Positions 1,257 through 40,778 of a stretch of DNA of 64,000 nucleotides are shown in pieces. The position numbers were made by a program, and so were the translations under genes. The number at the start of each line of letters is the position of its first letter. The first letter of the stretch is position 1. The notes under the pieces are model-generated. The model was given only the letters and a program-made list of their open reading frames with translations. It made no database searches and was not told the DNA's origin. Origin of the DNA: an uncultured virus (IMG/VR IMGVR_UViG_3300050132_000502) (taxonomy: Duplodnaviria > Heunggongvirae > Uroviricota > Caudoviricetes); IMG/VR virus record IMGVR_UViG_3300050132_000502; one strand, given 5' to 3'.

Positions 1257-3121
1257 TGGCTCGCCGCGTCGCAGTTATTCATCCTGATAACTCGGTCTCG
1301 CTCACTTTCGACGTCAACGCGACGTACGGGGAGAGCGACAAGTACGGGCGGTCCAAACTGCTCCGTGACTTTGTGTCGGGAATGTCCGGGGCCTCCTGGT
1401 CGAAGAAGACCACCACGTGGGAGTTGCCCGACGTCTACGACTACCGTCCGGGCACCTTGAAGCGGCTCGGCTTCGACATCGAAGACGACGACGGGAACCC
1501 CATCAAGCGCGAGAAGCGTTCTCCGAGGCCACCACGCTCGACCGAACTGAGTCCCCTCCCCGAGACGTTCAACTTGCCGCTCTACGACTACCAGCGCGAG
1601 GGTTCACTTATCGTGGCCGAGAAGAATCGGGTACTCGCTGACGCTCCCGGCGTGGGCAAGACCAACCAGGCCCTCGCCAGTGCCGCCATGCTGAGATCGA
1701 CGCGCACGCTGGTCGTGTGTCCGCCGGTCGTCGTGACCCACTGGTCGAGGACCTCTTCGAAGTCTGGCCTTGGCCCGGTGCTCGCGATCCGTGACACGGG
1801 ATTCTCCACCCCTATCGAGGGAGCGACATCCACCACCCCAGCGAAGTTGAAGAGTAGCAAGACGAGTCTTCCCGACCGAGGCGTCGTGGTGGTCTCGACG
1901 TCGTTGCTGTCCCTCCAGACCGATCTTCACCAGATGATGCTGGAGTGGCAACCCACGGTGTTCATCGTGGACGAAGCACACTCGTGTAAGACGTGGAGTT
2001 CGCTCCGTGCTCGACGGATGCGGGCCATCGCTCGGGTAACTCCCGACACCATTCCCACGACCGGCACCCCGACTCCGGCGGCGAACCCTCTGGAGATGGC
2101 CCCGCTGCTGGAGATGACCGGCGATCTCCAACGACTCTTCGGCGACTTCGAGTCGTACCGCGACGAGTTCTGCTACCGCTCGAAGTTCGGCTGGCTCCCG
2201 CGCAAGCGCGAACTCAAGCGTCTGCGCAAGATTCTCGACGAAGAGGTGTGGATTCGCCGCACTAAGGCCGAGGTGCTCCCCGGTCTCCCGCCAAAGATTC
2301 GGGTGCCGTACTGGGTCGACGCCATCAATAAGGAGTACAAGGACGCGCTCACCAAGGTCTACGCCGAGATCGACGCGTGGCTCAAGACCATGCGCTGGGA
2401 CCCGAGCGACGACGAGATCACGTTGTGGGCTCAGGGCAAAGTCGGTCTCATCTCGCGTCTGCGCCAAGCCGCCGGACTCGCCAAAGTGCCCGCCGCCGTG
2501 GAGTTCGTCGCGGCGCGGCCGCAAGAGCCAATTTTGGTGTGGGCTCACCACCAAGAAGTAGTCGAGCGTCTCCACGACAGCATCCCCGGCTCCGAGATGA
2601 TCTACGGCAACACCACCGACCGCGAGCGCGACCGCCTGGTCGATGCGTACGAGGCGGGCGAGATCAAGGTGCTGATTCTCTCTATCCAGAAGGTGGGAGT
2701 GGGCGTCACCTTAGTGCGCGGCAACGAGGCACTCTTCGTCGAGAGCGACTGGACGCCGGACAACATCACCCAAGCCGAAGACCGTCAGCACCGCCCCGGA
2801 CAAGAGGCCGATCACGTCACGTACACCACGATGGTCTGTGCGGGTACCATCGACGAGAACGTACAGGCCGTGCTGACCGACAAGGTAGAGCGCCTCGACG
2901 TGCTGGTGAGCGGGGACCACGCGGTCAACACCGAGATGGAACTGACGGGCAACGTTCTCGTCAACATGGTCCGCGAACGACGTGATGCCCACTGGGGCCG
3001 CACCTCCCAGCCAATAGTGGTAGACGTGGACACCGCGTTCGAGACAGAACTCGAAGAAGAGATCAAAGCGGCCAGCGATGAGCAACGCAAAGTCCTTATC
3101 GACATGAACGAGGAGTGGTAG
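1256..3121 (+). CDS. SNF2/HARP-like SF2 helicase
   Basis: LYDYQ Q-motif, LADAPGVGKT, VDEAH, TGTP, GVGVTL, QAEDRQHRPGQ. Confidence 0.9.
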   Translation: MARRVAVIHPDNSVSLTFDVNATYGESDKYGRSKLLRDFVSGMSGASWSKKTTTWELPDVYDYRPGTLKRLGFDIEDDDGNPIKREKRSPRPPRSTELSPLPETFNLPLYDYQREGSLIVAEKNRVLADAPGVGKTNQALASAAMLRSTRTLVVCPPVVVTHWSRTSSKSGLGPVLAIRDTGFSTPIEGATSTTPAKLKSSKTSLPDRGVVVVSTSLLSLQTDLHQMMLEWQPTVFIVDEAHSCKTWSSLRARRMRAIARVTPDTIPTTGTPTPAANPLEMAPLLEMTGDLQRLFGDFESYRDEFCYRSKFGWLPRKRELKRLRKILDEEVWIRRTKAEVLPGLPPKIRVPYWVDAINKEYKDALTKVYAEIDAWLKTMRWDPSDDEITLWAQGKVGLISRLRQAAGLAKVPAAVEFVAARPQEPILVWAHHQEVVERLHDSIPGSEMIYGNTTDRERDRLVDAYEAGEIKVLILSIQKVGVGVTLVRGNEALFVESDWTPDNITQAEDRQHRPGQEADHVTYTTMVCAGTIDENVQAVLTDKVERLDVLVSGDHAVNTEMELTGNVLVNMVRERRDAHWGRTSQPIVVDVDTAFETELEEEIKAASDEQRKVLIDMNEEW

Positions 3122-3158
3122 TGAGGCAACGCTCACCAAGCAGGGTTAGAACGTCACC

Positions 3159-3440
3159 ATGAGCAAAGAGATCGAGGCCGTGGCGCTCTACCTAGCCGTG
3201 CAGAAGGACAAGTCGTGGAGTCTGACGCCCGAGGACCGCGAACTACTCGACGCGCATCGCACTCTGACGGAGTGCATCAATCCCAAGAGCAAGATTCGCG
3301 CCATCGGCTGTCCCGAGTGCGGTCGAGTGGGATTCACCACGACGGCGACCATCCCGAAGTGCCGACTCACCATCAATTGCTCGGGCAAACCAGTCATCAT
3401 CGTTGCCAAAGAAAAAGCAGAGGCCGAGGACTTCGAGTGA
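3159..3440 (+). CDS. Small Zn-ribbon hypothetical protein
   Basis: CPECG...C..C. Confidence 0.55.
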   Translation: MSKEIEAVALYLAVQKDKSWSLTPEDRELLDAHRTLTECINPKSKIRAIGCPECGRVGFTTTATIPKCRLTINCSGKPVIIVAKEKAEAEDFE

Positions 3441-3442
3441 TA

Positions 3443-3667
3443 ATGCGTCAAGTGAAGCACGTGTTCACTCCTTACGAAGAGGCGGCATCACTCAACTTCC
3501 AACTGAGGTGTCTCATGAAGCCGCAGTTACAGAAGATGTGCAAGGACGAACACATCACCGGATTTTCTCAGATGAACCGGATGCAGATGCGTCACGCGAT
3601 TCTTCGCAAGAAGTTCTCGTGGTCCAAGGATTGGTCCGAAGATTGGCTCTTGGATTGGGTCGATTGA
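3443..3667 (+). CDS. Small protein with Rho-N/HeH-like helical motif
   Basis: ATG 3443; LMKPQLQKMCKDEHITGFSQMNRMQMRHAI resembles the Rho N-terminal pattern. Confidence 0.45.
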   Translation: MRQVKHVFTPYEEAASLNFQLRCLMKPQLQKMCKDEHITGFSQMNRMQMRHAILRKKFSWSKDWSEDWLLDWVD

Positions 3668-3709
3668 TCATCCTTCGCACCCATAGTTAGGGTTAGAGAC
3701 GGAGGTTTT

Positions 3710-4225
3710 ATGGTCAAGCGCCAGCCCAAAGGCACACCAGTCGGAGGTCAGTTCGCCGAAGGACGCAAGCCCGAAGGCAACGACCTCACTACCTCCTCCG
3801 TCAACCCCGGATTCGGCTCGCGCTACGGCGGCGGCGAGCACTACCTCACCGACGAGGGAGTCACCGTCACCATGTGGCGCAAGGGTCAGAAAGTCCGCTT
3901 CTATGACAACGAGGGGAACCAAGTTGGACCTGAGCAGTCCAACGTGGCTCCCGCTGTGGCGTACATCCACGCCAATGGCTGGCAATCGGAACTCGACTAC
4001 ACGGTCGTCAAGGCTCGCGAAGTGAAGAAGGGCGAGTACATCCTCCTGCACGGGACTATCTGCGAGGTCATGGACGAAGCGGAGATCGAGGCCGAGGAAG
4101 ACATCTTCGGCCAAAAACTCGACCGGCTTCGCCTTCGTCGCACGGACACTGACGAGGTAGGAACCATGCCCTTCGGCCCTCAAGGGATCGTGCGCTCACT
4201 GCCCTCCATGACCCGTACCAACTAA
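3710..4225 (+). CDS. Leader-tagged protein 1; C-terminal SH3-like barrel
   Basis: MVKRQPKGTPVGGQF; GGAGG RBS; AREVKKGEYILL. Confidence 0.85.
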   Translation: MVKRQPKGTPVGGQFAEGRKPEGNDLTTSSVNPGFGSRYGGGEHYLTDEGVTVTMWRKGQKVRFYDNEGNQVGPEQSNVAPAVAYIHANGWQSELDYTVVKAREVKKGEYILLHGTICEVMDEAEIEAEEDIFGQKLDRLRLRRTDTDEVGTMPFGPQGIVRSLPSMTRTN

Positions 4226-4268
4226 GCGACCTGTCGCACCCATAGTGAAGGATGAGACGGAGGACCGT

Positions 4269-5072
4269 ATGACCAATCGACAGCCGAAGGGCACACCCGT
4301 GGGTGGACAGTTCTCTGAAGGACGCAAGCCGGACGGCAGCGACTTAGTGGACGACCGCGACATTGCCACGCGGGACTACATGAACTCGCAGAGGGGGAAA
4401 CAGTTGCCCGCCCGCGATTACTCCCGTGAGGCTATCGACGCGCACAAGGACGCGATTCTCGACGCAGAGCAGAATGTGGAGTCAACCATCGGCTCCTACG
4501 CCCCGGACGCGCTTTTCAACAGCACGACCCGCGAACTTCACGACAACATGCAAACCATCGTTGACAACCAGAAAGAGATCATCTACGAACTCGAATCGCA
4601 ACTTCGCGCCATCCGCGAACAGCCGAGTCCGCGTGTCTACATTTCTCCCGACGGAAACTGGGGTGGGGCCGAAGGTCTACTTCTCTTGAGTGACGCCGAC
4701 GTCGAGAAGGTAGGCGACCTGAGCGAACTGTACGAGGAGTACGGGGACAACATGATCGACGGGGTGCGCGAGCGTCTCGAACCAAAGCCCGAGTTGGTGC
4801 TCTCCTACAACGACTGGCACGACGTCGCCGAAGCAGTGGGCAATCTCACCGACGCGTGGAATACGACTCAAAACTTCTCGCCAGAGATGGATACCGCCAT
4901 GAATCGTCTGTACTTCTCATATGACACGCCTCACGACATGGTGGTCAAGTCGATTGTGGACATTCAGAACGCATGGCGAGATGTCGATTGGGGTGATGAC
5001 CCGGACGCGGTGAAGATCGACAAACTGGTGGACTCACTCGGAGACTTCCTCACCACCAAGGAGCCGTCATGA
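4269..5072 (+). CDS. Leader-tagged protein 2, acidic helical cargo
   Basis: ATG 4269 after GGAGG; leader present. Confidence 0.85.
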   Translation: MTNRQPKGTPVGGQFSEGRKPDGSDLVDDRDIATRDYMNSQRGKQLPARDYSREAIDAHKDAILDAEQNVESTIGSYAPDALFNSTTRELHDNMQTIVDNQKEIIYELESQLRAIREQPSPRVYISPDGNWGGAEGLLLLSDADVEKVGDLSELYEEYGDNMIDGVRERLEPKPELVLSYNDWHDVAEAVGNLTDAWNTTQNFSPEMDTAMNRLYFSYDTPHDMVVKSIVDIQNAWRDVDWGDDPDAVKIDKLVDSLGDFLTTKEPS

Positions 5073-5758
5073 CCAACCGCCAACCCAAGGGCACACCCGT
5101 CGGAGGTCAGTTCTCAGAAGGACGTAAGCCCGAAGGCGGAGACCTCTACGACGAGGTAAACGACAGTGTTGAGGTCGAGGAGTTCGAGGGTAACCTCACC
5201 GCATCCTACGAGGGGTACGTCTTCACCATCTCACCGCCGGACCCCGAGGCGCATCGCGCTCATTGGACCGCAGAGTTTCGCGCCGACGAAAGTTCCGTCG
5301 AGCAGTACGCGACCAAGGGGGAGTTCGCTTCTTTCGAAGAGGCCACCGACCTGTTCAAGGAATGGCCCGCAGTCGTGAAGTCGATGACACACGCCAATGA
5401 CGGATTGAAGGCCAGCGCCGGAGACCTCGAACTCACGGAACGACTCAATGATGTCCATATCCTGTGGCAGGAATTCGACGACAACGAGCAACTCTACGAC
5501 GGAGAGTTTGAGCAAATCTATGCCGTGTTAGATGAGGCTACTCGACGACTCGACGGCGACCCGAACGATCCGACATCTACCAACGCGAAGAACCTCGAAC
5601 TCTCTGACAAAGTACACAACGCACACATTTTGATTCTGAACTTCGACAAGGACGGCACAGCGATCAGCCGAGATGACTTCGACTACATCACTGAGGCCAT
5701 TGAGGAAGCCCGAGAGACGCTGGGGGCTGGTGGTCCTCACGGGGCCGTCGCCGAGTAA
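5069..5758 (+). CDS. Leader-tagged protein 3, acidic, with internal helical repeat
   Basis: Leader; DLELTERLNDVHIL / NLELSDKVHNAHIL. Confidence 0.85.
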   Translation: MTNRQPKGTPVGGQFSEGRKPEGGDLYDEVNDSVEVEEFEGNLTASYEGYVFTISPPDPEAHRAHWTAEFRADESSVEQYATKGEFASFEEATDLFKEWPAVVKSMTHANDGLKASAGDLELTERLNDVHILWQEFDDNEQLYDGEFEQIYAVLDEATRRLDGDPNDPTSTNAKNLELSDKVHNAHILILNFDKDGTAISRDDFDYITEAIEEARETLGAGGPHGAVAE

Positions 5759-5760
5759 CG

Positions 5761-6474
5761 ATGAACCGGCAACCTAAGGGCTCGCCGGTCGGTGGTCAGT
5801 TCGCGCAAGGTCGCAAACCTGACGGACCAGAACTCGACTTCGAGGATGACGAGTTTGAGATCACCACTCTTGAGCATGACGGTCTTCCTGCGGCGACGTT
5901 CTCGCACGTAGTCCACATCGGATCGCTCGACGCGGACGAGAAGCGGGGGTGGTCGCTCGAAGGCGATGGTCTTTCCGTGTCAACGGAACCCGAGGCGTGG
6001 GAAGAGATCGCTGGTCTCGGAGGCAATCAGTGGTGGACGCTCACCAAGAGCAACAATGTCTTTCTGGATGCGCACGAACTCTCCGACGAGCAGCGTGACG
6101 TCATCAACAATTGGGGTGTTGAACGCGGCTATCTGGTCAAGCAGGACGGCTGGCGTATCGAGTGGTTCGACGACGAGATGGATGACACCATGAGCACTGT
6201 CCTCGACACCGAAGAAGAAGCGCGGGAGGAACTCGACACAATGGAGGTCGATCAAGAGCCGGTCCTCGTCGAGCAACTCGTCGCTGGTCCGAACTTTCCC
6301 GATGCGGCGGGAGCAAGCAACGCGGATCAGGTCATTTTGTCCGTATGGGCTGACGAAATGTCCGACTTCGATGGCGTGTGGTGGAATGACGACCTCGCGC
6401 CCGAGCATCTCAGTGCTCCCCGAGCCGTCATTTTCAAGAGCAGACTGGCGGAGTGGGGTCGCACCCATAACTAG
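5761..6474 (+). CDS. Leader-tagged protein 4; possible enzymatic (ART-like?) cargo
   Basis: Leader; HIGSL..GLSVS..FDGVWW..SAPRAVIF. Confidence 0.8.
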   Translation: MNRQPKGSPVGGQFAQGRKPDGPELDFEDDEFEITTLEHDGLPAATFSHVVHIGSLDADEKRGWSLEGDGLSVSTEPEAWEEIAGLGGNQWWTLTKSNNVFLDAHELSDEQRDVINNWGVERGYLVKQDGWRIEWFDDEMDDTMSTVLDTEEEAREELDTMEVDQEPVLVEQLVAGPNFPDAAGASNADQVILSVWADEMSDFDGVWWNDDLAPEHLSAPRAVIFKSRLAEWGRTHN

Positions 6475-6478
6475 AGAT

Positions 6479-7594
6479 ATGACTAAGCGCCAGCCCAAGG
6501 GCACTCCCGTAGGTGGACAGTTCGCCGAAGATCGCAAACCAGATGGTGCCGACCTGGTGAGACTTCCTGACGGTCGCGAGTTCCCCAGTGACTATGAAGA
6601 TGAGTTACGTGGTGAGACAGCGGCTCACGAACGTTCTGAGCCGAACGAGCACTCAATGCCGTCTGCTCTGGCCGGAAATGTCTCAAACGTGCAGGTGGGC
6701 TCACGAACTCCGTGGGGAACTGCCGACTACGTGAACCACATCGCACCAGGCATCGTCTCGGTCGCCACGCCGGGACACGGCGGAGTCAAACTCTCGCCCG
6801 AGCGCAACAAGAAGGTGCCCGTACCTTTGCGCACGAAGTCGGGCTGGTACGAAGAGGACTGCGAAGCGTACATCCCCATGATGGTCCACGCGGGTGACAT
6901 GAAGCGAACGGGCGAGTCCACCGAAGACGCATTCAAGCGATCCGAACTCGGCGTCATGAACTGGTTCCCCGAGGGATACGAGGAGGCTTACTCGGTGGAG
7001 TTGCCCGTCGGCGCGTCACTCATGAAGGACGAAAAGACCTGGCTGACGACACACGCTCTCGACGAGATCGCGATCTCCGCCATTGGGACGGGTGACGGAA
7101 TGGTCAAGGTCACGGTCTGCGTAGGTGGTCGCGCCAAGTACGGACACGATGGAGTATCCGAGCGCGAGATTCTCGTTCCTAAAGAGGAGTACGACAGCCC
7201 TGATTTCCGTCACCCCATCGGTAAGCACAGCGGGTCGTTCGTGGTGGATTCTCGACAGAACTACGAGGACGTAACTCCACCGCCGAAGGCCCCGAACCCT
7301 CCGGCCCCGCGCTATCGCGAGATCAATTTAGGGTTAGTAACGAACGCTCAACGTGAGAGAGCCCAACGCGACCTGGACAAGAGATATCGCTTCAGTAACG
7401 GCAGTGTCCAATCAGTGCGTGAGGTCATCGAGAGTGGTGGCATCGCCAGCAAGTCGTCAATGGAGAACAACGGTCGACGCACCTACTACCTACGACGAGC
7501 GATTGAGGCCGAGGGAGAACCGGGACAGGACACCTTCAACGCTCTGGAGGTTTCCAAGGCTCTATGGGACGCGGTCGTCGCGCCAGCGAATTAG
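6479..7594 (+). CDS. Leader-tagged protein 5; DUF7007-like domain
   Basis: Leader; RTPWG...TPGHGGVKLS...GWYEEDCE. Confidence 0.8.
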   Translation: MTKRQPKGTPVGGQFAEDRKPDGADLVRLPDGREFPSDYEDELRGETAAHERSEPNEHSMPSALAGNVSNVQVGSRTPWGTADYVNHIAPGIVSVATPGHGGVKLSPERNKKVPVPLRTKSGWYEEDCEAYIPMMVHAGDMKRTGESTEDAFKRSELGVMNWFPEGYEEAYSVELPVGASLMKDEKTWLTTHALDEIAISAIGTGDGMVKVTVCVGGRAKYGHDGVSEREILVPKEEYDSPDFRHPIGKHSGSFVVDSRQNYEDVTPPPKAPNPPAPRYREINLGLVTNAQRERAQRDLDKRYRFSNGSVQSVREVIESGGIASKSSMENNGRRTYYLRRAIEAEGEPGQDTFNALEVSKALWDAVVAPAN

Positions 7595-7617
7595 TTTTCG
7601 CACCCATAACTAGAGGT

Positions 7618-7860
7618 ATGACTAAGCGACAGCCAAAGGGCACACCAGTGGGCGGGCAGTTCGCCGAAGGCCGCAAGCCCGAGGGTGCAGAACTGACTAC
7701 CTCTCCCGATGAAAAGACGACCACCGTCAAGTGCTCAGACTGTCAAACGGAAATCGATCCACTTGACGTGTTCCCCGAGGGGCGTTGTCTCAACTGTCAT
7801 GCAGCCGTGACGCCGATGCCCACCGCCGAAGAAGTTCGACGAGCATGGGGGGTTCGATGA
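7618..7860 (+). CDS. Leader-tagged protein 6; small Zn finger
   Basis: Leader; CSDC...CLNC. Confidence 0.85.
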   Translation: MTKRQPKGTPVGGQFAEGRKPEGAELTTSPDEKTTTVKCSDCQTEIDPLDVFPEGRCLNCHAAVTPMPTAEEVRRAWGVR

Positions 7861-8405
7861 CCACACGTCAGCCCAAGGGCACCCCCGTCGGTGGACAGTT
7901 CGCAGAAGGACGCAAGCCCGAAGGGGTCGTGTTAGCGCCGGTTTCACCGCTGTTCAATAAGGCCACCGTCGTCGATCACCAACGTCAGGTCAAGATACTC
8001 GAAGCGGAGATCGAAGACCTCTATCAGGACGCCTTCGTCAACGACACGAAGCCCGACAGTAGCGATCTACTTGCTTTGAAGAACGACTTGATTCATCAGC
8101 AGCACGAGATCATCCGCAAGCAGGCCAAGGAACTCGCAGACCTCCAGAGAGATGCTGGTGACTTTCAACTGCGTGGCATCATTCGTGCCAACGTTCGCGA
8201 CCGTCTATCCAACGTCGTTGATCTTGGCGATGATGATGCCCGTATCCGCGAGTTCTACGCTCAGATTGACGAACTTATGGAGCACCACTTCGCTAGGTTC
8301 GCCCCTGAGGAGAATGATGCGCTAGACGGCGTTGCGGCATCGGAGACGAACTTCTTCATGAAGCGGCTCGACCTCGACACGATGTCACTGAAAAAGGATG
8401 CGTAA
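7857..8405 (+). CDS. Leader-tagged protein 7; coiled-coil cargo
   Basis: ATG 7857 (ATGA overlap); leader. Confidence 0.85.
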   Translation: MTTRQPKGTPVGGQFAEGRKPEGVVLAPVSPLFNKATVVDHQRQVKILEAEIEDLYQDAFVNDTKPDSSDLLALKNDLIHQQHEIIRKQAKELADLQRDAGDFQLRGIIRANVRDRLSNVVDLGDDDARIREFYAQIDELMEHHFARFAPEENDALDGVAASETNFFMKRLDLDTMSLKKDA

Positions 8406-9259
8406 TGACCAATCGACAGCCCAAGGGCTCACCCGTAGGTGGACAGTTCGCAGAAGGACGCAAGCCCGAAGGCGGAGACCTTTCCGTCACCGGGGAGAAC
8501 GATGCGAACATGGAACTTGCCGAGCGACTGAACCGACTCGACTGCATGATGCAAGACCTCGAAGAGTTCGGAGCATCCGTTCTCGATGGGGAGATGTCCT
8601 TCATCCACGCCACTCTCACGGATGCTCGTACCGCCCTCGCCGAGCCTGGTGCCACCTTCGAAGGCAGGTACAAGGACACGTTGCCCGACGTGAATCAAGA
8701 AGATGGCGTCTTCACTCTTGGCGATCACACCTATGAGTTCGAAAAGACGGGACCAGAGAACGACATCACGGAGTACACACTCACCAACGCCGAGGGTGGC
8801 GGAGGATGGCGTTTCGGCTACGACCGCCTGACCCGTCGCGTCACGGCGCATGGCGTCGCTCCAGTTCGCCCCTCGGCGGAGTGGCGTGACAAAGGTGAGG
8901 CGGACATCCGCACCGTGGCTCGCTTGTTCGAACCAGACGCGAGACTGATTCAACTCGATGGCGAGACATATCTCATCGGCGGAAATCCGTGGCCCCTCAG
9001 CCCCTCACACCTGCAAGGAATCGCTACCGGCGAGATGATGCTGAACAGTGGCAAGACCGAGCATGACCTTCGCGCCTACGTGTCCCAGCAGCGCAGCGAC
9101 ACGGCCCGAAGTGAGACCGAGCGTCCTGACATGGCGAAGTCGTTCGCGGAGACGCGTAGTTACATCGACGGAATTGAGATCGCCATCAACCTCGGCGAGG
9201 AAGCGGCGAAAGCCAACACCGTGGGTGCAATGGACGCACGCTTCAAGGAGAAGTCATGA
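8405..9259 (+). CDS. Leader-tagged protein 8; multi-module cargo
   Basis: Leader; TAATG overlap. Confidence 0.85.
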   Translation: MTNRQPKGSPVGGQFAEGRKPEGGDLSVTGENDANMELAERLNRLDCMMQDLEEFGASVLDGEMSFIHATLTDARTALAEPGATFEGRYKDTLPDVNQEDGVFTLGDHTYEFEKTGPENDITEYTLTNAEGGGGWRFGYDRLTRRVTAHGVAPVRPSAEWRDKGEADIRTVARLFEPDARLIQLDGETYLIGGNPWPLSPSHLQGIATGEMMLNSGKTEHDLRAYVSQQRSDTARSETERPDMAKSFAETRSYIDGIEIAINLGEEAAKANTVGAMDARFKEKS

Positions 9260-9750
9260 CCAATCGACAGCCCAAGGGCACACCCGTTGGTGGACAGTTC
9301 GCAGAAGGACGCAAGCCCGAGGGTGCTGATCTAGCATTCGTTAATCCTGACTTCAGTGTCAGGAATGAAGGAGCGAGCGCAGTGGTCTTAACTCCCGAGC
9401 AAGAAGAGGTAGCCGCTGCCTACAAGGTCGCGGCGCTCTGGTCGACCAGTGGTGACGACGACGAGCCGTTAGACGCCGAATACGGGATCGACCAGATCAG
9501 CGAAGAATCCAGTGAGGAGATCGCCAAGGACGTCGTCGAGTTTTGGGAGCGAGCGAAGGCCGAAGGTCTCACCGAGCATTGGACACCGGGGCAGTTCGGC
9601 CACGACTTCTATCTGACGCGGGCGGGGCACGGAGCCGGATTTTGGGATCGAGGATTCGGCTACGCGGGCGGGCGTCTCACCGAGATGGCCAAGTCCTACA
9701 AGGAAAAGACCCCTATCGTCGGGGACGACGGTTCAATCTATTTCGAGTAA
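9256..9750 (+). CDS. Leader-tagged protein 9; phage-type GHDFxLTRxGHGxGFWDR domain
   Basis: Leader; GHDFYLTRAGHGAGFWDRG. Confidence 0.85.
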   Translation: MTNRQPKGTPVGGQFAEGRKPEGADLAFVNPDFSVRNEGASAVVLTPEQEEVAAAYKVAALWSTSGDDDEPLDAEYGIDQISEESSEEIAKDVVEFWERAKAEGLTEHWTPGQFGHDFYLTRAGHGAGFWDRGFGYAGGRLTEMAKSYKEKTPIVGDDGSIYFE

Positions 9751-9792
9751 TCCTCTGTCGCACCCATAGTGAAGGATGAGACGGAGGATCGT

Positions 9793-10302
9793 ATGACCAA
9801 TCGCCAACCCAAGGGAACGCCAGTGGGTGGACAGTTCGCGGAAGGTCGCAAGCCCGAGGGTGGCGACTTGGAAGTTTCAAGCACATCCGTCGAGCCTCTC
9901 AAGAAGAAAATCTCGTTCGGAAAAGTTGACGGCTACGGCAACGGTCGCAAGAGTTGCTCCGTCGATGTTCAGGTCTCCATCTCGGAGAACAACGAAGGTC
10001 AAGCACGGTTGAGCATCCAGGGCAACGTATGGAACGCAGGCCACACTGACATCATCAGTGGCGGGCAGAACGTTGACGAAATGTTGCGACTCGTCGATGA
10101 CCCCAAGATGCGCGAGATCGCCGAAGTGTGGAAACGTTGGCATCTCAACGACATGCGTGTCGGGTGTGAACACCAGCGGACGCAGCCGAAGGGCTCTGTC
10201 GAGGTTGGACAGGAATGTCCCGAATGCAGTTATCGCTACGGTTCGGCGTGGCTCTACGAGGAACTCCCACCGGAGGTCATCGAGCAAGTGAGGTCGTGGT
10301 GA
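9793..10302 (+). CDS. Leader-tagged protein 10; WxxWHLNDM/Zn-ribbon domain
   Basis: Leader; WKRWHLNDMRVGCEHQ...CPECSYRYGSAW. Confidence 0.85.
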   Translation: MTNRQPKGTPVGGQFAEGRKPEGGDLEVSSTSVEPLKKKISFGKVDGYGNGRKSCSVDVQVSISENNEGQARLSIQGNVWNAGHTDIISGGQNVDEMLRLVDDPKMREIAEVWKRWHLNDMRVGCEHQRTQPKGSVEVGQECPECSYRYGSAWLYEELPPEVIEQVRSW

Positions 10303-11102
10303 CAAATCGCCAGCCCAAGGGCACACCCGTGGGAGGTCAGTTCTCCGAAGGCCGTAAGCCCGAGGGCGACGACCTGACCAACATCGAAGTTGATGGAGTT
10401 ACGGTTGCCGGATATCGCCACGTGGACATCGACGGCAATACCGAGACTCTCAACGCGGGCAACCAGTGCATCTCGTGTGGCCGGAGCAGTGGCCTCGTCA
10501 ATCGCGTCTCGTCAGAGCGTTCGAGTGAGGACGGCATCCGTGTCGCGGGCTATATGTGCGCGGAGTGCGACGGCTGTGAGGACGGAACAACCCTTCGTTG
10601 GTGCAGCGAATGTGGGGACTTCACCGCTGGAGATGAAGAAGGCGTCTGTCACGAGTGTGGCAGTGAGCAAGACGGCTCTGTTCCCACCGATGGCGTTGAC
10701 GAAGACTCCTACCTTGCACGTTGTACCCAGTGCACGGGTGAGACGACCTTCGACTTCGAGGTGTTCGCACACCGACTGAAGGGCGACAACTTGATGACCA
10801 AAGTTGGGACGACCTACGGAGAAGTCAAGATTGGCGAATGGGTGCCAGCGGTGTTCCCCGAGACCTTGATGCAGATTTTGAGGATAGAGCACGAAGGTCC
10901 AGAGGACTACGAAGGGTGGAGTGCACAGAGCCTCGCTCAGATTCTCAAAGAGCGTGATCTCACGACGGCCAAGGTAACGGACGTGCTCGACATCTTCAAT
11001 GACGGCAGTGGTGACGTCGCGTCGGTGGCCTTCGATCCAAAACGCGGCATCAACCAAGTCATGCTGGAGATCAACGGAACGTTGGAGAGGATCACGCAAT
11101 GA
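10299..11102 (+). CDS. Leader-tagged protein 11; multiple CxxC Zn ribbons
   Basis: GTG 10299; leader; CISC, CAEC, CSEC, CHEC, CTQC. Confidence 0.85.
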   Translation: MTNRQPKGTPVGGQFSEGRKPEGDDLTNIEVDGVTVAGYRHVDIDGNTETLNAGNQCISCGRSSGLVNRVSSERSSEDGIRVAGYMCAECDGCEDGTTLRWCSECGDFTAGDEEGVCHECGSEQDGSVPTDGVDEDSYLARCTQCTGETTFDFEVFAHRLKGDNLMTKVGTTYGEVKIGEWVPAVFPETLMQILRIEHEGPEDYEGWSAQSLAQILKERDLTTAKVTDVLDIFNDGSGDVASVAFDPKRGINQVMLEINGTLERITQ

Positions 11103-11716
11103 ATCGCCAGTCAAAAGGCACACCCGTTGGTGGACAGTTCGCGCAAGACCGCAAGCCGGAGGGCGGTGACATCTTCACTGGAATAAGTCAAGACCGAGGG
11201 TTCGAGATACTTCGTGAGATGGGGGCGAATGACGATGACGTCTATCGCTTCCTCGAAGAAGTGGGAGATCGTGACCGCTACGAGCGCGAAGACGTAGAAG
11301 AGTGGTGGGCCGCTAGGTCGGGCCGTGTGGTCGAGGTCGACAGTTCTGGCACGGCATGTCTTGTCCATCCCGACGGAAGGCGCGAGTGGTCGAAGAATGG
11401 TGAGCCGGTGCCGCCGCCTATCGGGACAGAGATCAGCCCTTCTGAAGCCCGTGCTCTGCCGAGTTACACCGAAGTGATGGTGACGTTCGACACGACTCCT
11501 GATCGAGAGTTCCGACTCATGGCTCGGGACCTTCCACGCTGGACCTTCCTCGGAGTCGGTGCGGGTTCTGACCGAGAGACGCGAGACTCGCACTTGCCGA
11601 GACGATTCACCAACCTCGACACCGGCTTTGAAGTTTTCCTCGGAGGAGATGAAGGCATGAACTCGGCAGAGAGCACCGTCAACATGACCAAGATTCGAGT
11701 GAGCGGTCACGGATGA
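11099..11716 (+). CDS. Leader-tagged protein 12
   Basis: MNRQSKGTPVGGQF. Confidence 0.85.
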   Translation: MNRQSKGTPVGGQFAQDRKPEGGDIFTGISQDRGFEILREMGANDDDVYRFLEEVGDRDRYEREDVEEWWAARSGRVVEVDSSGTACLVHPDGRREWSKNGEPVPPPIGTEISPSEARALPSYTEVMVTFDTTPDREFRLMARDLPRWTFLGVGAGSDRETRDSHLPRRFTNLDTGFEVFLGGDEGMNSAESTVNMTKIRVSGHG

Positions 11717-12375
11717 CCAATCGTCAGCCCAAGGGCACACCCACCGGAGGTCAGTTTGCAGAGGGTCGCAAGCCCGAAGGTCTTGACTTATCGGCGGAAG
11801 ACCTCATTAGATCAGTAAGGGGAGACGCACTGCGAGGACTGAAAAGGATTGGCGATGGAGCCTATGGCTACAAGGGCCACACCATCACTAAGAGCGACTG
11901 GACTGGTTGGGAATGTCACACGGAGACTGGTACGGTCAGTCGTGACTCTCTTACCGAGATGAAGTACGCGCTCGACAGCATCGTCATCAAAGAGACTGAG
12001 CCACGTACAAAGATGCGCGTCACCAACAGTTCTGGCAACGAGTTTGAAGTTCGAGTGATCCGCAAAGGTGAGCGGTACGGTCGAGACGACTGTCTCGTGA
12101 ATGACGAGGGTAATAAGTTCTTCAACCCCAACGACCCAATCCTGGTGGAGTTTTGGGACGCGGAGCAAGACTCCGCTCACTTCCCCGGCGGGTGTCAATT
12201 CGTAAGTCGTTACGGGCTCAAAACGCTCACCGAGCGTTCAGGTGCTCACGCCTATGCTGGCCTGAACCTTTACGGGGGTGAGCCGAAGTGGTCAATCGAC
12301 GCCACTACCATGTCGGATGTCTACGAATGGCTAACACCAATTCTCGCCGAGACCGAACAGACGGAGAAATCGTGA
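11713..12375 (+). CDS. Leader-tagged protein 13; phage/plasmid-type GxxYG...VEFWD...QFVSRY domain
   Basis: Leader; KGERYGRDDCL..ILVEFWD..QFVSRY..GLNLYGGEPKW. Confidence 0.85.
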   Translation: MTNRQPKGTPTGGQFAEGRKPEGLDLSAEDLIRSVRGDALRGLKRIGDGAYGYKGHTITKSDWTGWECHTETGTVSRDSLTEMKYALDSIVIKETEPRTKMRVTNSSGNEFEVRVIRKGERYGRDDCLVNDEGNKFFNPNDPILVEFWDAEQDSAHFPGGCQFVSRYGLKTLTERSGAHAYAGLNLYGGEPKWSIDATTMSDVYEWLTPILAETEQTEKS

Positions 12376-13055
12376 CAAACCGACAGCCAGGTGGCTCACC
12401 AGTTGGAGGTCAATTCGCCGAAGGCCGCAAGCCCGAAGGCGGTGACCTCGGCAAGATCACCGAACTCGCTATCGACTTCGGATACGGCATCAAGGTGCCC
12501 GCACACCAGCACAAGAATCCCGATGGATCGACAGGTGGCTGGGTCGCCGACACCGCACTGGTCGATGAGACTGCGTACGTGAGCAAGGACGCTTTGGTGT
12601 TTGGTTACGCCAAGGTACTGGGTACCGCGAAGATACTCGACTCCGCCTCTATCTCTCAATCCGCCAATGTCTTCACTGGAGCCAGCGTCGGTGGCAAGGC
12701 CAAGGTTTCTGGTCACTCGGTGATCCTCTCAACCAACAGTGTCAAAGGCAATGCTGAAGTCTTTGGTACCGCCGAGATCAACGGAGCCATCGTGGAAGGT
12801 GATGCCAAGGTCTTCGGCAACAGTCGTCTGCACAGCAGTTCCTTGGTGTCGGGCAATGCTCAGATATACGACAACGCAAAGATTCGCGGGCACGTCGATG
12901 GACATGCCGACATCTGTGGCAACTCAATGATTAGTGCGGGCGCTCACGTCGGAGGGCACGTCTGTGTCTTCGGTGACGCCACGGTCTACGGCGAGTTCAT
13001 CGGCAACGAAACGTTCCACGAAGGTGTGCACGGCAGAGATGCGGCGGAAGAATAA
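12372..13055 (+). CDS. Leader-tagged protein 14; hexapeptide-repeat left-handed beta-helix
   Basis: GTG 12372; leader; AKVLGT/AKVSGH/AEVFGT/AKVFGN repeats. Confidence 0.85.
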   Translation: MTNRQPGGSPVGGQFAEGRKPEGGDLGKITELAIDFGYGIKVPAHQHKNPDGSTGGWVADTALVDETAYVSKDALVFGYAKVLGTAKILDSASISQSANVFTGASVGGKAKVSGHSVILSTNSVKGNAEVFGTAEINGAIVEGDAKVFGNSRLHSSSLVSGNAQIYDNAKIRGHVDGHADICGNSMISAGAHVGGHVCVFGDATVYGEFIGNETFHEGVHGRDAAEE

Positions 13056-13285
13056 TGAGCCAGCCACGCTCACCACAAGGAACTCCTACCGGAGGACAGT
13101 TCGCGGAAGACCGCAAGCCCGACGGCGGTGATCTCGCGACGGACGTGAAGCCACTGCCACCTGGCGCGGTTGCCGGTTGCACCATTTGCGAGAGACAAGG
13201 TGGAGGTATCGCTCCTCGTCATTTCGCCAGCAAGCGATGTGAGTCCGGCGGCTCTAACCACTGTTCCTGCGACGTCTGCTTCTAA
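13055..13285 (+). CDS. Leader-tagged protein 15; Cys/His-rich microprotein
   Basis: MSQPRSPQGTPTGGQF; CTIC..H...CESG..HCSCDVCF. Confidence 0.85.
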   Translation: MSQPRSPQGTPTGGQFAEDRKPDGGDLATDVKPLPPGAVAGCTICERQGGGIAPRHFASKRCESGGSNHCSCDVCF

Positions 13286-13295
13286 GAGGAGAAGG

Positions 13296-13667
13296 ATGAC
13301 CGACCGACAGCCGAGCGGCACACCAGTGGGAGGTCAGTTCGCCGAAGGACGCAAGCCCGAAGGCAACGACCTTTCTCAAACGCCAGAGATGATTGTGGTC
13401 ATGCCTAGTGCTGACGGTGAGCGTGCCGTGGAGTCTCCTTCGATGCGCTGTCACGACTGCGACGGAGTCATGACCATAGGCGATGATGGCATTTCAAATC
13501 ACCGCGATGACGACGGCAACATCGACTACGACACCGACCTCAACCACGTGGCGTTCACCTTGGAGGACAGCGAAGACGAGGAAGACGACGAGCCTGACGA
13601 GATGAGCGACGATTTCCCTATTTCGCTGGAATACGACACCTCCTACGAGGACGGCGATTACCAGTAG
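13296..13667 (+). CDS. Leader-tagged protein 16; Zn site plus very acidic tail
   Basis: ATG 13296 after GAGGAGAAGG; CHDC; EDSEDEEDDEPDE. Confidence 0.85.
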   Translation: MTDRQPSGTPVGGQFAEGRKPEGNDLSQTPEMIVVMPSADGERAVESPSMRCHDCDGVMTIGDDGISNHRDDDGNIDYDTDLNHVAFTLEDSEDEEDDEPDEMSDDFPISLEYDTSYEDGDYQ

Positions 13668-13705
13668 CCGTCTGCACCCATAGTGAAGGGTGAGACGGAG
13701 GACGC

Positions 13706-14533
13706 ATGACCAAACGGCAGCCAGGTGGCACACCAGTCGGCGGACAGTTCGCTGAAGACCGCAAACCTGAAGGCGGCGACCTCGCACACCGTTCAACTGC
13801 GCAGAAGATCGCCGCACGCCTCACCGTGGGGACTCGGGTTCTCTGCGTAGAGAACACCTTCATCCCTAACTCGTCAGGGGTCATCCTTGAGATTCAGAAG
13901 TCCGGCGCGAAATCGTTTGTCGGGATCGTGGTCGACCCAGCGGATCGGGAGCGTCTGAGGGCGGGATCGGCCTTCGACCTCTCTATCGGCACCGGAGCGG
14001 TACTCGACGAGGTGAACAACCAGTTCTCTAGCAACATCGTGATCAACAAAGAAGTCAAGGGACGCTCGACGTGGGAGTTCTTGCCTGACGCCACCGACGC
14101 CGAGTTTGACGACGATGCACAGCAAGACGAGTCCATCCCCGAGGAAACCAAGCAGCGATACATCGACGGCATCAAGGCTGGCTACGCCGATCTCGCGGCC
14201 ATGATTCCGAGCCTCGACGTATCGAGGTATTTGCCGAACGACAAGGGACTCAAACTCATTCACGAGTCGTCACTCACCATTACCAATGAGATGGAAATTA
14301 GCACCGGCATTGCGTGGACAGCGATCTTGAAGATGGACGGCAGAACCATCAACGTCGAGAATGACGGACGTGGTGGCTCAAACAAGTATTGGGTCGCAGA
14401 CGGTCCTCACGGCTGGCAACTGGAGGCGGCACTCAACGAGGAAGTGAAGGCGGGGTTCCCCGGTCTCGCCGACGACCAAGAGCAGATCGACGACTTCTGC
14501 TCCATTCTCGATATGGCTCACGGGAGAGAGTAG
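13706..14533 (+). CDS. Leader-tagged protein 17
   Basis: Leader; C-terminal YLPN...VENDGRGG domain. Confidence 0.85.
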   Translation: MTKRQPGGTPVGGQFAEDRKPEGGDLAHRSTAQKIAARLTVGTRVLCVENTFIPNSSGVILEIQKSGAKSFVGIVVDPADRERLRAGSAFDLSIGTGAVLDEVNNQFSSNIVINKEVKGRSTWEFLPDATDAEFDDDAQQDESIPEETKQRYIDGIKAGYADLAAMIPSLDVSRYLPNDKGLKLIHESSLTITNEMEISTGIAWTAILKMDGRTINVENDGRGGSNKYWVADGPHGWQLEAALNEEVKAGFPGLADDQEQIDDFCSILDMAHGRE

Positions 14534-14796
14534 TGACGACTCGGAATCCGAAAGGAACCCCGGTTGGCGGTCGATTCGCACAAGAGCGCAAGCCCGATGG
14601 TGTCGACTTCGTAGGAGTTGTCGAGGACACCGAGGACGAGGAATACAAAGAACGGTACTGCGGCTACTGCAAAGTCGAAGGTCACAACTTCGCGCATTGT
14701 TCGAGACGCGACATCGACGGCATCGCGATTGGCGTTGACAGCGACGACTTTCACGAAGACATGCTCACCTATAGAGATCGAGACGAGAATGACTAA
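14533..14796 (+). CDS. Leader-tagged protein 18; CCHC zinc knuckle
   Basis: GTG 14533; TRNPKGTPVGGRF; CGYCKVEGHNFAHC = CX2CX4HX4C. Confidence 0.85.
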   Translation: MTTRNPKGTPVGGRFAQERKPDGVDFVGVVEDTEDEEYKERYCGYCKVEGHNFAHCSRRDIDGIAIGVDSDDFHEDMLTYRDRDEND

Positions 14797-15583
14797 CCGT
14801 CAGCCCAAGGGCACACCCACCGGAGGACAGTTCGCAGAAGGGCGCAAGCCTGAGGGCAGTGATCTCCCGGCGATCACCCGATCCAAGGGCACGGCTGTCG
14901 GCGGCTTCGTCGTTGGTGGAGGATATCGAGGCATCACCGACGACCTTGACAGTGTGGTCGAAGCAACTGCCGAGTACATGACCACCGAGTTCAATATGCC
15001 GGTCGAGATTCGTTTCAACTCTGATCGTCGCCGTGGCGGTGCGTGGCTCAACTTCGATGGGAACACCTCAGCGGTCGGTATCAGCGCAAACCAGCACGAG
15101 ACGAAAAAAGAGGCTAAAGAAGGTCGGTACTACAAGTCGTTCGGCGACGACAAGGCTGGGGCTCAGGAATACCTCGCTAGTTGCGACGGAGAGGTACACC
15201 TCGACGTCTACGTCGTTGGAGAGTTCTTGCGCGACCCCAGTGAAGCCGAGGAGACCGCCAACGGCTCTCGTCGATTGATGACACCGATTGGTAACGTCGG
15301 CGACGCTCTTACCTTCGTGCGCGAGCACACCATCGTTGGCGACTTTGCCGAGATAGAGCGTCGTACCCTCATTCGCCTAGAGAGCATCAAAAAGCGTGAT
15401 GCCCTGAAGGAGAAGGCGAACAAAGACTACGAACTAGCGGTGGGCATCATTGTCAAGAACGGTGAACACACTCGTGAGCAAGCGATCAAAGAAATACAGC
15501 CCGCGTACGCCGCTCAGTACAGAGAGTTCGAGCAGGAACTCTTCGACGACTACTGGGCTCAAATCGCGAAAGGATCATCATGA
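14789..15583 (+). CDS. Leader-tagged protein 19
   Basis: ATG 14789; leader. Confidence 0.85.
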   Translation: MTNRQPKGTPTGGQFAEGRKPEGSDLPAITRSKGTAVGGFVVGGGYRGITDDLDSVVEATAEYMTTEFNMPVEIRFNSDRRRGGAWLNFDGNTSAVGISANQHETKKEAKEGRYYKSFGDDKAGAQEYLASCDGEVHLDVYVVGEFLRDPSEAEETANGSRRLMTPIGNVGDALTFVREHTIVGDFAEIERRTLIRLESIKKRDALKEKANKDYELAVGIIVKNGEHTREQAIKEIQPAYAAQYREFEQELFDDYWAQIAKGSS

Positions 15584-15987
15584 ACCGTGAACCCAAGGGG
15601 ACGCCGACTGGCGGACAGTTCGCACCAGGACGCAAGCCCGAAGGCGGAGACCTCCCGGTCGAGCCGATTATGACGCCGCACGGTCAACTCGTCATCAACG
15701 CCTTTCGTGCTGACAGTGGACAAGTGGTCGCCCTCATGGGTATTTTGACACCGTGCTGCAACGCCTCCGGCAAGGGGCTCTACGACGAAGATGCTGACCG
15801 TGGATACGTGGGATGTCGTCGTTGTTTCAATCCGGTCGACGACATTCACGGCTCGTGTTTCAGCGATGAAGAGTTCAAGGACGACACTCTGACGCAAGCG
15901 ATTGCCGACTATTGGTTTGATGGCGACAGTGAGAAAGTCGTGGGGCTACGCACGGTGATCGCCGAACGTATGAAGGACCCCTCGTAG
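15580..15987 (+). CDS. Leader-tagged protein 20; Cys-rich
   Basis: Leader; LTPCCNASGKG...GCRRC. Confidence 0.85.
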   Translation: MNREPKGTPTGGQFAPGRKPEGGDLPVEPIMTPHGQLVINAFRADSGQVVALMGILTPCCNASGKGLYDEDADRGYVGCRRCFNPVDDIHGSCFSDEEFKDDTLTQAIADYWFDGDSEKVVGLRTVIAERMKDPS

Positions 15988-16030
15988 TCGCACCCATAAC
16001 TAGGGGTAGAACGTTCGCAAGGAGACATCA

Positions 16031-16261
16031 ATGAGGAAGCGTCAACCCAAGGGCACTCCCGTCGGCGGACAGTTCGCTGAAGACCGCAAACCAGAAGGCG
16101 CTGACCTGTCCGAGCCGAAGTCGTATCTGCCTTCTGAATTGGAGCCGCGTCCTGACTCCAAGTTGACGAACTTCATGCTGAAGCCCCGGTCACGATCTTT
16201 TGCGTTGGACTGGGCAGACCGGCGTCGGAAGCGGGAAGAAAAGAAGACCACGAAGTCATGA
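16031..16261 (+). CDS. Leader-tagged microprotein 21, basic tail
   Basis: AAGGAG RBS; leader plus ~50 aa. Confidence 0.8.
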   Translation: MRKRQPKGTPVGGQFAEDRKPEGADLSEPKSYLPSELEPRPDSKLTNFMLKPRSRSFALDWADRRRKREEKKTTKS

Positions 16262-17645: not shown

Positions 17646-17677
17646 TCGCACCCATAGTGAAGGAGAGAAGGAGTCAC

Positions 17678-19785: not shown

Positions 19786-19787
19786 TC

Positions 19788-40775: not shown

Positions 40776-40778
40776 GGA

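Follow-up and report, generated by a model that had tools for sequence, protein, structure and literature searches.

A short N-terminal leader on 31 genes of an actinobacterial megaplasmid resembles a module junction of phage polyvalent proteins

Results

Thirty-one genes begin with the same short peptide

We analysed a stretch of 64,000 nucleotides (nt), hereafter the window, from IMG/VR record IMGVR_UViG_3300050132_000502, catalogued as an uncultured virus of the Caudoviricetes, in which a short leader peptide recurs at the start of many genes. A six-frame motif scan combined with open reading frame (ORF) analysis of both strands yielded 31 leaders. Twenty-eight of the genes make up a single unbroken, co-oriented array on the plus strand (3710-21876), whose junctions overlap or leave at most 5 nt in 18 of 27 cases; the remaining three lie on the minus strand and start at 36368, 46159 and 46790. 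The preliminary description of this DNA concerned the interval 3710-5830, which holds leaders 1-4 (starts 3710, 4269, 5069 and 5761). The two leader strings that it quoted are present exactly, copy 1 at 3719-3754 and copy 4 at 5767-5802, and its statement that the repeat is always in frame at the start codon proved true of all 31 genes, the motif lying 6-10 codons past the start. The start codon is ATG in 27 genes and GTG in four. Shuffled versions of the window held the motif 0.11 times on average (100 mononucleotide shuffles) or 0.07 times (100 triplet shuffles), and never more than once. The genes are as follows (lengths in amino acids, aa); every row rests on the scan and ORF analysis, with further evidence given where it exists.

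g01, 3710-4225, plus strand: 171 aa; the leader is the first ~29 codons
g02, 4269-5072, plus strand: 267 aa, acidic body
g03, 5069-5758, plus strand: 229 aa, acidic body, net charge -31
g04, 5761-6474, plus strand: 237 aa, acidic body, net charge -34
g05, 6479-7594, plus strand: 371 aa, DUF7007 body (Pfam, 3.6e-30); leader-bearing orthologues in three related records
g06, 7618-7860, plus strand: 80 aa, 4-Cys body
g07, 7857-8405, plus strand: 182 aa
g08, 8405-9259, plus strand: 284 aa
g09, 9256-9750, plus strand: 164 aa, phrog_1915 body
g10, 9793-10302, plus strand: 169 aa
g11, 10299-11102, plus strand: 267 aa, GTG start, Cys-rich body
g12, 11099-11716, plus strand: 205 aa
g13, 11713-12375, plus strand: 220 aa
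g14, 12372-13055, plus strand: 227 aa, GTG start, left-handed beta-helix body
g15, 13055-13285, plus strand: 76 aa, MSQPR leader variant
g16, 13296-13667, plus strand: 123 aa, very acidic body
g17, 13706-14533, plus strand: 275 aa
g18, 14533-14796, plus strand: 87 aa, GTG start
g19, 14789-15583, plus strand: 264 aa
g20, 15580-15987, plus strand: 135 aa
g21, 16031-16261, plus strand: 76 aa
g22, 16258-17082, plus strand: 274 aa
g23, 17079-17645, plus strand: 188 aa, MSQSRVPKGAPKTGGQF leader variant
g24, 17678-18658, plus strand: 326 aa, left-handed beta-helix body
g25, 18751-19785, plus strand: 344 aa, KTSC-like body; leader-bearing orthologues in three related records
g26, 19788-20024, plus strand: 78 aa, GTG start
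g27, 20082-20975, plus strand: 297 aa
g28, 20968-21876, plus strand: 302 aa, final gene of the array
g29, 35721-36368, minus strand: 215 aa, most divergent leader, within the type IV secretion operon; leader-bearing homologue on plasmid pACHL01 of Pseudarthrobacter chlorophenolicus A6
g30, 45236-46159, minus strand: 307 aa, MSQPRVPKGTPKAGGQY leader variant; akin to the pACHL01 gene at the matching place of the secretion operon
g31, 46242-46790, minus strand: 182 aa, heads the secretion operon

The leader consensus, M-T-N-R-Q-P-K-G-T-P-V-G-G-Q-F-A-E-G-R-K-P-E-G-x-D-L, spans about 25 residues, of which seven (R, G, P, G, G, R and P) show no variation in the 31 copies and three more come close to that (F in 30, Q in 29 and K in 28). 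Past D-L all resemblance between the leader proteins ends: with the leader removed, BLASTP found similarity in 2 of 465 body pairs (g14/g24 and g17/g22). The majority of the bodies are strongly acidic and several are zinc-ribbon-like. For g04 (5761-6474), a feature search of the ESM Atlas returned weak leads, scoring 0.80-0.87 and so under the 0.9 level, to ART-PolyVal and AcrIF11 ADP-ribosyltransferase clusters.

Leader residues 1-30 were not covered by any family model of Pfam (31 proteins scanned), NCBIfam (30) or PHROGs (30). In an AlphaFold2 (AF2) model of g05, built on a 6-row alignment and with a mean predicted local distance difference test score (pLDDT) of 64, residues 1-30 and 32-65 fell under a pLDDT of 50, and the leader itself (pLDDT 23-25) was without secondary structure. 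Because this model leaves the leader disordered, we regard it as a predicted short linear motif, carried at the extreme N terminus by a flexible tail. It does not read as a Sec or Tat signal peptide, the leader alignment being free of hydrophobic stretches and rich in glycine, proline and charged residues.

Conservation acts on the peptide

The preliminary description had reported that differences between copies concentrate at third codon positions, and had concluded that selection acts on the peptide, which speaks against an attC-, CRISPR- or iteron-like role. Over 23 core columns, mean entropy was 0.31, 0.32 and 1.38 bits at codon positions 1, 2 and 3, and the pooled Nei-Gojobori proportions of differing sites were 0.64 for synonymous sites (pS) and 0.13 for nonsynonymous sites (pN), which gives a dN/dS of about 0.10. 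As a reference for saturation, codons were redrawn from the codon usage of the gene bodies with the amino acids kept, which yielded a pS of 0.77 ± 0.01. The synonymous divergence of the leaders thus reaches 83% of simulated saturation, about five-sixths, and none of the 465 leader pairs had a pS below 0.1. Entropies at the three codon positions were 0.43, 0.26 and 1.19 for the 43 leaders of pACHL01, and 0.47, 0.35 and 1.19 for 29 leaders of a plasmid of Arthrobacter sp. zg-Y1110. Indeed, the peptide is conserved across plasmids that differ in codons and in G+C content (58% versus 64-67%).

The leader DNAs share a mean nucleotide identity of 74% and a median exact run of 11 nt; exact runs of at least 20 nt are common to 31 of the 465 pairs, the longest being 44 nt. 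With 74% identity beside seven invariant residues, this is not the conservation regardless of frame that is expected of a DNA-level repeat. RNAalifold, given all 31 leader DNAs together with the 25-30 nt that precede them, returned -3.19 kcal/mol with a covariation term of +0.09. Seven base pairs were proposed: six are confined to near-invariant codon positions 1 and 2, the seventh is broken in 7 of the 31 sequences, and a double change occurs in one of the seven, in a single sequence. Therefore, no hairpin accounts for the conservation of the leader, and none kept by covariation appeared in this run. The regular recurrence of a ~75-nt segment at gene starts would suit a DNA or RNA element inside the coding sequence, be it an attC site, a CRISPR repeat, an iteron or a translation-control hairpin. 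The third-position variation, the low dN/dS, the RNAalifold outcome, the constant frame at the start codon and the persistence of the peptide across plasmids of differing codons and G+C make the chance of such an element practically negligible, and bear out the earlier conclusion.

Third positions are nevertheless partly constrained. ACA is used at the Thr codon in 13 of 25 leaders against 10% in gene bodies, GAA at the first Glu codon in 23 of 26 (39% in bodies) and CGC at the second Arg codon in 27 of 31 (30% in bodies); the codons that depart from body usage are ACA, GAA, CGC, GGC, GGA and CCC, at alignment columns 10, 11, 16, 20, 22 and 24 (p from 1e-3 to 5e-12). This modest residual bias, which lay outside the preliminary description, could reflect shared ancestry or a constraint at the 5' end of the mRNA. 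Together with the shared runs it fits incomplete saturation or occasional duplication or conversion, and does not rescue the idea of a DNA site.

Conserved 5' DNA could also act as a recombination handle by which effector cassettes are swapped between genes, a role proposed for conserved pre-toxin segments in polymorphic toxin loci. The longer exact runs, the synonymous bias, the highly diverse bodies behind a constant start and the tandem or both-end leaders of some database proteins (see below) would all suit this explanation. A median shared run of 11 nt at 74% identity, synonymous sites close to saturation beside seven residues that never vary among the 31 copies, an in-register start codon belonging to each copy, and junctions as tight as those of expressed operons (18 of 27 at 5 nt or less) make it very improbable.

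The same motif precedes effector modules in phage proteins

Searching the window-leader profile against 1.84 billion representative proteins gave 146 matches at E ≤ 0.001, nearly all matching residues 1-30. The profile led to 175 database proteins, whose bodies include ArdC-N with an M78 peptidase, pentapeptide repeats, LPD29, DUF7007, DUF7226 and DUF6745; of 123 database proteins that bear the motif, 110 have it at the N terminus. ArdC-N and LPD29 are among the domain types that the searched text of PMC5512222 ascribes to proteins entering a new host with DNA. Some database proteins carry tandem N-terminal leader pairs or a leader at each end (P0093, P0268, P0273, P0325 and P0275); in P0275, an Arthrobacter protein of 301 aa, one leader lies at residue ~16 and another at the C-terminal end. 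This suggests that double-leader proteins are in-frame fusions of adjoining leader genes, standing between single genes and polyproteins.

The profile also retrieved nine large proteins (1159-2335 aa) that hold 2-5 internal copies of the motif each, 29 altogether, in the form [YFW]-[NSD]-P-x-Q-[AP]-R-x-P-K-G-T-P-x-G-G-Q-W with invariant Q, R, P, G, P, G and G. Seven of the nine start with a Phage_Mu_F domain, and the modules that follow the internal motifs comprise ADP-ribosyltransferases, a glutamine deamidase-type papain fold, HNH, Zeta toxin, NUDIX, ART-PolyVal, anti-CBASS Acb1, PARP-like and Tpt1-like domains. These nine are phage polyvalent or MuF polymorphic proteins. The window leaders share the core of the junction, R-x-P-[KA]-G-x-P-x-G-G-[QE]-[WF] with R, P, G, P, G and G invariant, as well as its position directly upstream of a variable effector domain. 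Moreover, they open 2-4 residues ahead of the conserved R, and variants g15 and g30 (M-S-Q-P-R-x-P-x-G) match the Q-P-R of the junction. Because of this starting point and of these two variants, the plasmid leader proteins look like polyvalent-protein modules turned into single genes that begin at the junction, a likeness that the preliminary description had not touched upon.

In IMG/VR, the back-translated motif pattern was present in 12 contigs. In three annotated head modules the motif ORF lies directly past the portal gene and the major capsid gene comes after it (3 of 3 for both), and an S78 prohead protease gene follows the motif ORF in two. Small portal-adjacent proteins (L112:4551-5030, L101:5749-6159, L111:7351-7788 and 5650-6162) belong to HK97-type prophages and have a constant start of ~45 residues, then YRPDQPRAPKGTPEGGQW, then a variable end. 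This family comes from Devosia and relatives; every named member is annotated as 'hypothetical', and three carry the Pfam domain PF18431. Its members were similar in the part before the motif in 3403 of 3403 pairs and in the part after it in 1802 of 3403, counts that are biased because the set was seeded with one full-length member. These small proteins look like polymorphic effectors.

Other searches for relatives gave no match: the leader and the 32-aa W-type junction by tblastn against isolate phages, the F-type leader pattern in IMG/VR, and relatives of P0280 in IMG/VR. The best isolate-phage match to P0269, the minor capsid protein of Microbacterium phage Caron, does not contain the motif and was set aside. 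No description of the motif was found in the searched text of PMC5576092, PMC12226406 and PMC5512222, subscription papers and supplements excluded; a full-text literature search for the strings GGQF and GGQW gave nothing relevant among the papers listed, and literature on megaplasmids, Arthrobacter and N-terminal motifs gave nothing on the leader.

Repeated inter-module sites, 29 in nine proteins, resemble the cleavage sites of polyproteins. The motif could accordingly be a processing or turnover site, cut by a protease after GG or upstream of Q-x-R, that frees the modules of polyproteins or, in single proteins, takes off or exposes an N terminus and so activates the protein or times its degradation. 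The prohead protease genes in two of three head modules, a papain-fold domain in three of the nine polyvalent proteins and the fact that stand-alone leaders begin right at the conserved Q-x-R of the junction speak for this explanation, and zincin-like processing of polyvalent proteins is already proposed in the searched text of PMC5512222. It is distinctly unlikely in our view: it is hard to see what a single-domain protein would gain from a cut right at its beginning, and yet purifying selection on the leader is strong; some motif-bearing polyvalent proteins have no protease domain; and the conserved zincin/VWA gene of the window, described below, is absent from one leader-bearing plasmid. 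The position before the junction, Asn in 13 of 29 cases, is too variable for a self-cleaving Asn, and a self-cleaving Asn-Pro junction, like a Pup-like reading of G-G-Q/E, was dropped because no result supported it.

The leader occurs in related conjugative plasmids

The window is a part of its element, and 48 context proteins were scanned in it. Around the array lie an SNF2 helicase, a DnaE-type polymerase, a ThyX-like protein and a VirB4-like ATPase of the AAA_10 family, and small membrane proteins complete a Gram-positive-looking type IV secretion operon. Two context features of this operon, outside the leader set, are:

31672-34200, minus strand: VirB4-like secretion ATPase (AAA_10)
38076-43952, minus strand: 899-aa NlpC/P60 protein and 1057-aa polytopic membrane protein

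Leader genes g29, g30 and g31 sit within the operon, and the first two are akin to pACHL01 leader genes at matching places. Capsid, portal and terminase families were absent from the 48 proteins. The window contains no coupling protein; related plasmids have one. A near-identity search of 3000-22000 against plasmids and phages gave no match, but two contigs, of 208 and 332 kilobases (kb), encode proteins identical or nearly identical to those of the window. The VirB4-like protein is 47-51% identical to those of plasmids of 370-600 kb from Arthrobacter, Pseudarthrobacter, Paenarthrobacter and Curtobacterium, against 27% identity to its counterparts on Bifidobacterium megaplasmids; SNF2, DnaE, VirB4 and four more proteins of the secretion operon are common to the window and the Arthrobacter and Curtobacterium plasmids. 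The element is an actinobacterial megaplasmid with type IV secretion genes, akin to the Arthrobacter-type plasmids. Leader genes were counted in four plasmids:

Plasmid of Arthrobacter sp. zg-Y1110, 400 kb: 29-30 leader genes, N-terminal
pACHL01 of P. chlorophenolicus A6: 43 leader genes (47 profile matches)
Curtobacterium pS16: ~10 leader genes, of a more divergent form
Bifidobacterium breve pMP7017: 0 leader genes

The leader is hence present where VirB4 is 47-51% identical, and absent from pMP7017, where it is 27% identical. In both Arthrobacter-type plasmids the largest leader array adjoins ParA, and that of pACHL01 is ~10 kb from the coupling protein and from a giant FtsK-like protein. 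The pACHL01 leader proteins are labelled 'hypothetical' in NCBI and UniRef; leader bodies of the Arthrobacter plasmids include a CCA-adding-type nucleotidyltransferase with an HD domain, a weak match to sigma-70 region 2, DUF2958 and DUF7007. Genes g05, g25, g29 and g30 retain the leader across lineages, with bodies 21-41% identical. No Phage_Mu_F or HK97 capsid match was found in three related plasmids.

All leader-bearing plasmids have the leader's first half in common (R-Q-P-x-G-[IVT]-P-x-G-G-Q-F-A). The second half is uniform within a lineage and differs between lineages (AEGRKPEGxDL in the window versus AATxHxEPxVxL in Arthrobacter). This lineage-specific tail shows concerted evolution of the peptide, the codons having diverged. 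We infer that such a pattern would be expected if many tagged proteins co-evolve with one lineage-specific partner.

In an even sample of 401 Actinomycetota genomes, strong matches occurred in Brevibacterium only; two other genomes had weak, single matches. The Brevibacterium genome has its three leader genes on a small island that lies downstream of dnaA-dnaN-gyrB-gyrA, with a tyrosine integrase next to them. This island (L056, G001:C67, ~66.7-79.9 kb) opens with the integrase directly past gyrA and a DUF3566 gene, and also contains an R2K ATP-grasp protein, a metallophosphoesterase, resolvases and a Mu-type transposase.

That one core occurs in unrelated delivery settings (type IV plasmids, tailed phages) and in an island with no adjoining transfer genes would suit a host-target motif, in which the peptide binds one conserved hub, such as a component of the replisome, polymerase, chaperone or protease machinery, and tethers effectors there. 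From Actinobacteria to Devosia phages, R, P, G, P, G, G and an aromatic residue are strictly invariant, as a conserved pocket might impose, and the lineage-specific tail could follow host variation. On the other hand, we found no candidate target, binding does not need a place strictly at the N terminus or ahead of a module, and a single target common to ArdC-like, sigma-like, tRNA-repair-like and acidic proteins is hard to account for. We consider this explanation unlikely.

Neighbouring genes of the element

A DnaB-type intein carrying a LAGLIDADG homing endonuclease splits the superfamily 1 (SF1) helicase gene (46834-48993, minus strand); the homologue on pACHL01 (431 aa) is intein-free, and homing-endonuclease domains also occur in several coupling-protein homologues. 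We had considered the SF1 helicase as the coupling protein and dropped it, its Pfam matches being to RecD/TraA-type helicases. A DUF2201 zincin/VWA protein and a MoxR AAA_5 ATPase (49260-50561 and 52829-53941, minus strand) are kept in both Arthrobacter-type plasmids, where their neighbours are the SF1 helicase and a gene homologous to the 332-aa one that follows the array in the window (21952-22950). The zincin/VWA and MoxR pair is absent from Curtobacterium pS16 and B. breve pMP7017. Neither this pair nor the 332-aa protein was retained as an obligate partner of the leader, being absent from pS16 and not found in the incomplete draft of Brevibacterium.

A complex prediction between the pACHL01 coupling protein (53 alignment rows) and residues 1-40 of a pACHL01 leader protein (10 rows), run without controls, scored 0.00, which speaks neither for nor against binding. 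An APH-type phosphotransferase-fold gene (30808-31668, minus strand) closes the secretion operon just past the VirB4-like gene, and tblastn found no homologue of it in related plasmids. In Curtobacterium pS16 (546 kb; 356-366 kb), flgK, flgL, flgN, fliD, fliW and flagellin lie within ~7 kb of the VirB4-like gene.

A promoter-like motif accompanies leader genes

A 13-nt motif, GCACCCATA(G/A)(T/C)(T/G)A, matched 15 times in the window against 0.37 expected. Its copies include:

3677-3689, plus strand: GCACCCATA(G/A)(T/C)(T/G)A upstream of g01
Starts at 4236, 6461, 7600, 9760, 13674, 15990, 17648, 18710 and 20047, plus strand: further copies
44297-44309, 46183-46195 and 46813-46825, minus strand: further copies

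Thirteen copies lie 6-35 nt ahead of start codons, those of leader genes and of one secretion-operon gene, and no conserved -35-like block is visible upstream of the motif. At g05 and g06 the motif ends 5 nt ahead of the ATG, so that a leaderless transcript would result. The motif looks like a plasmid-specific promoter. The zg-Y1110 leader gene that heads the secretion operon (L021:8045-9064, minus strand) has a weak match to sigma-70 region 2 (E 3e-4, below the Pfam cut-off). In the same operon place of the window stands g30, akin to its pACHL01 counterpart and to a Curtobacterium pS16 gene; a Pfam scan of g30 gave no match. As such, g30 is a candidate factor for the promoter-like motif.

Discussion

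Our results describe a leader peptide that is selected at the peptide level, stands at the N terminus of proteins with unrelated bodies, occurs on 29 to ~43 genes per plasmid and has relatives in phage proteins. Several known systems show one or more of these traits. The internal proteins of phage T4 (IPI-III and Alt) bear a short common N-terminal capsid-targeting leader that acts through the prohead scaffold and is cut by the prohead protease; they are unrelated, separately encoded proteins that enter the host with the DNA, including anti-restriction and ADP-ribosylating proteins. The likeness to the window leader lies in this arrangement, the sequences being unrelated, and the capsid that a T4-type role would call for is missing, with no MuF or HK97 capsid in three related plasmids and none among the 48 window proteins. 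Pre-toxin junction motifs (VENN of CdiA, PT-TG, DPxGL of Rhs), internal to large secreted toxins, likewise are short conserved peptides that mark the start of variable cargo; their sequences differ, and the window motif, unlike them, can form the very beginning of a cytoplasmic-type protein. The type VI markers MIX and RIX and the packing signals of contractile injection systems are longer domains, or are not conserved in sequence. They too mark a polymorphic effector class at the N terminus, for different machines, and help in the search for new effectors; the scan of 48 window proteins showed no genes of type VI or contractile injection systems. Double-glycine bacteriocin leaders are N-terminal and have a hydrophobic pattern ahead of G-G, whereas the window leader lacks that pattern (P-K-G-T-P-V precedes GG) and is conserved for 13 residues past GG; no C39 peptidase/ABC exporter was among the 48 proteins.

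Cargo domains of the same kinds (ArdC-N, LPD29, ART, SNF2 neighbours) belong to the polyvalent proteins and MuF polymorphic toxins of phages and conjugative elements (PMC5512222; PMC5576092). MuF polyvalent proteins contain the same motif family at module boundaries; in the plasmids, by contrast, the modules are genes of their own that begin at the motif, up to ~43 per plasmid. Conjugative type IV protein transfer, as described in the abstracts of PMC8406263 and PMC11288057 for pED208/F, sends establishment proteins to the recipient in Gram-negative systems, and anti-defence genes of plasmid leading regions (abstract of PMC11541004) are the first expressed in the recipient and form co-oriented arrays beside transfer and partition genes, as here. 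The abstracts of these three papers report no common N-terminal motif. The leader is apparently an undescribed short marker motif of polymorphic effector sets, and it is unusual for such a motif to form the N terminus itself in dozens of separately encoded proteins of a conjugative megaplasmid.

Since the same peptide also precedes the effector modules of phage proteins that are proposed to be injected, the leader looks like a transferable marker of proteins that move along with mobile DNA. The explanation we prefer, at a probability of roughly 0.45, is that it serves as a disordered 'effector header', a handle by which proteins bound for a new host along with the DNA are recognised. The header would be read by a common partner, such as an adaptor, a processing enzyme or a component of the transfer machine, and header-bearing proteins would accompany the DNA of the element into the new cell. 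The route would be the type IV secretion system for the plasmid and the virion for phages, and plasmid effectors would each have a gene of their own starting at the header, instead of being modules of one polyprotein. Three leader genes in the secretion operon, arrays near the coupling protein or ParA, and anti-restriction and takeover cargo support this reading. Furthermore, the searched text of PMC5512222 proposes that polyvalent proteins are injected with DNA and that ArdC-N is a 'header', and F-like type IV systems translocate plasmid-encoded proteins to recipients according to the abstracts of PMC8406263 and PMC11288057.

A more specific proposal is that the leader constitutes an N-terminal translocation tag of a new kind for Gram-positive conjugative type IV secretion, with phages tagging their injected polyvalent modules likewise; we hold this to be possible, if rather doubtful.

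Several points weigh against a header. No partner of the leader was found; the DUF2201/MoxR pair, which had been considered, is missing from a plasmid bearing ~10 leaders and did not turn up in the incomplete Brevibacterium draft. To our knowledge, known type IV secretion signals are C-terminal or internal, and the window motif is N-terminal in 31 of 31 proteins. The phage head and the type IV system are unrelated, so that one docking signal for both is unlikely, which favours a role of the motif that does not depend on the machine. In the MuF fusions the MuF domain alone should be enough for packaging, so internal motif copies would not be needed for loading. The Brevibacterium chromosomal island has three leader genes and no adjoining secretion genes. 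Finally, the synonymous bias at some codons indicates that a force beyond the peptide, or incomplete saturation, shapes the DNA too. These points keep binding to a host hub and proteolytic processing alive as explanations.

If the leader were indeed a type IV translocation tag, about one in ten megaplasmid proteins (31 in the window, ~43 in pACHL01) would form an injected 'effectorome', delivered before or with the DNA and possibly including a sigma-like factor to initiate transcription at the promoter motif of the plasmid. More generally, if the motif marks travellers with mobile DNA, its 13-residue pattern would be a search key for anti-defence and host-takeover effectors, most of which are annotated as 'hypothetical'. 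A header would also join two fields that have been studied separately, phage polyvalent and MuF proteins on the one side and the establishment genes of conjugative plasmids on the other, and would mean that the same effector modules can be deployed as one fused polyprotein or as dozens of tagged single genes. The plasmid proteins that enter the recipient, and the way in which they are selected, would then become directly testable in the sequenced, non-pathogenic P. chlorophenolicus A6 with its plasmid pACHL01.

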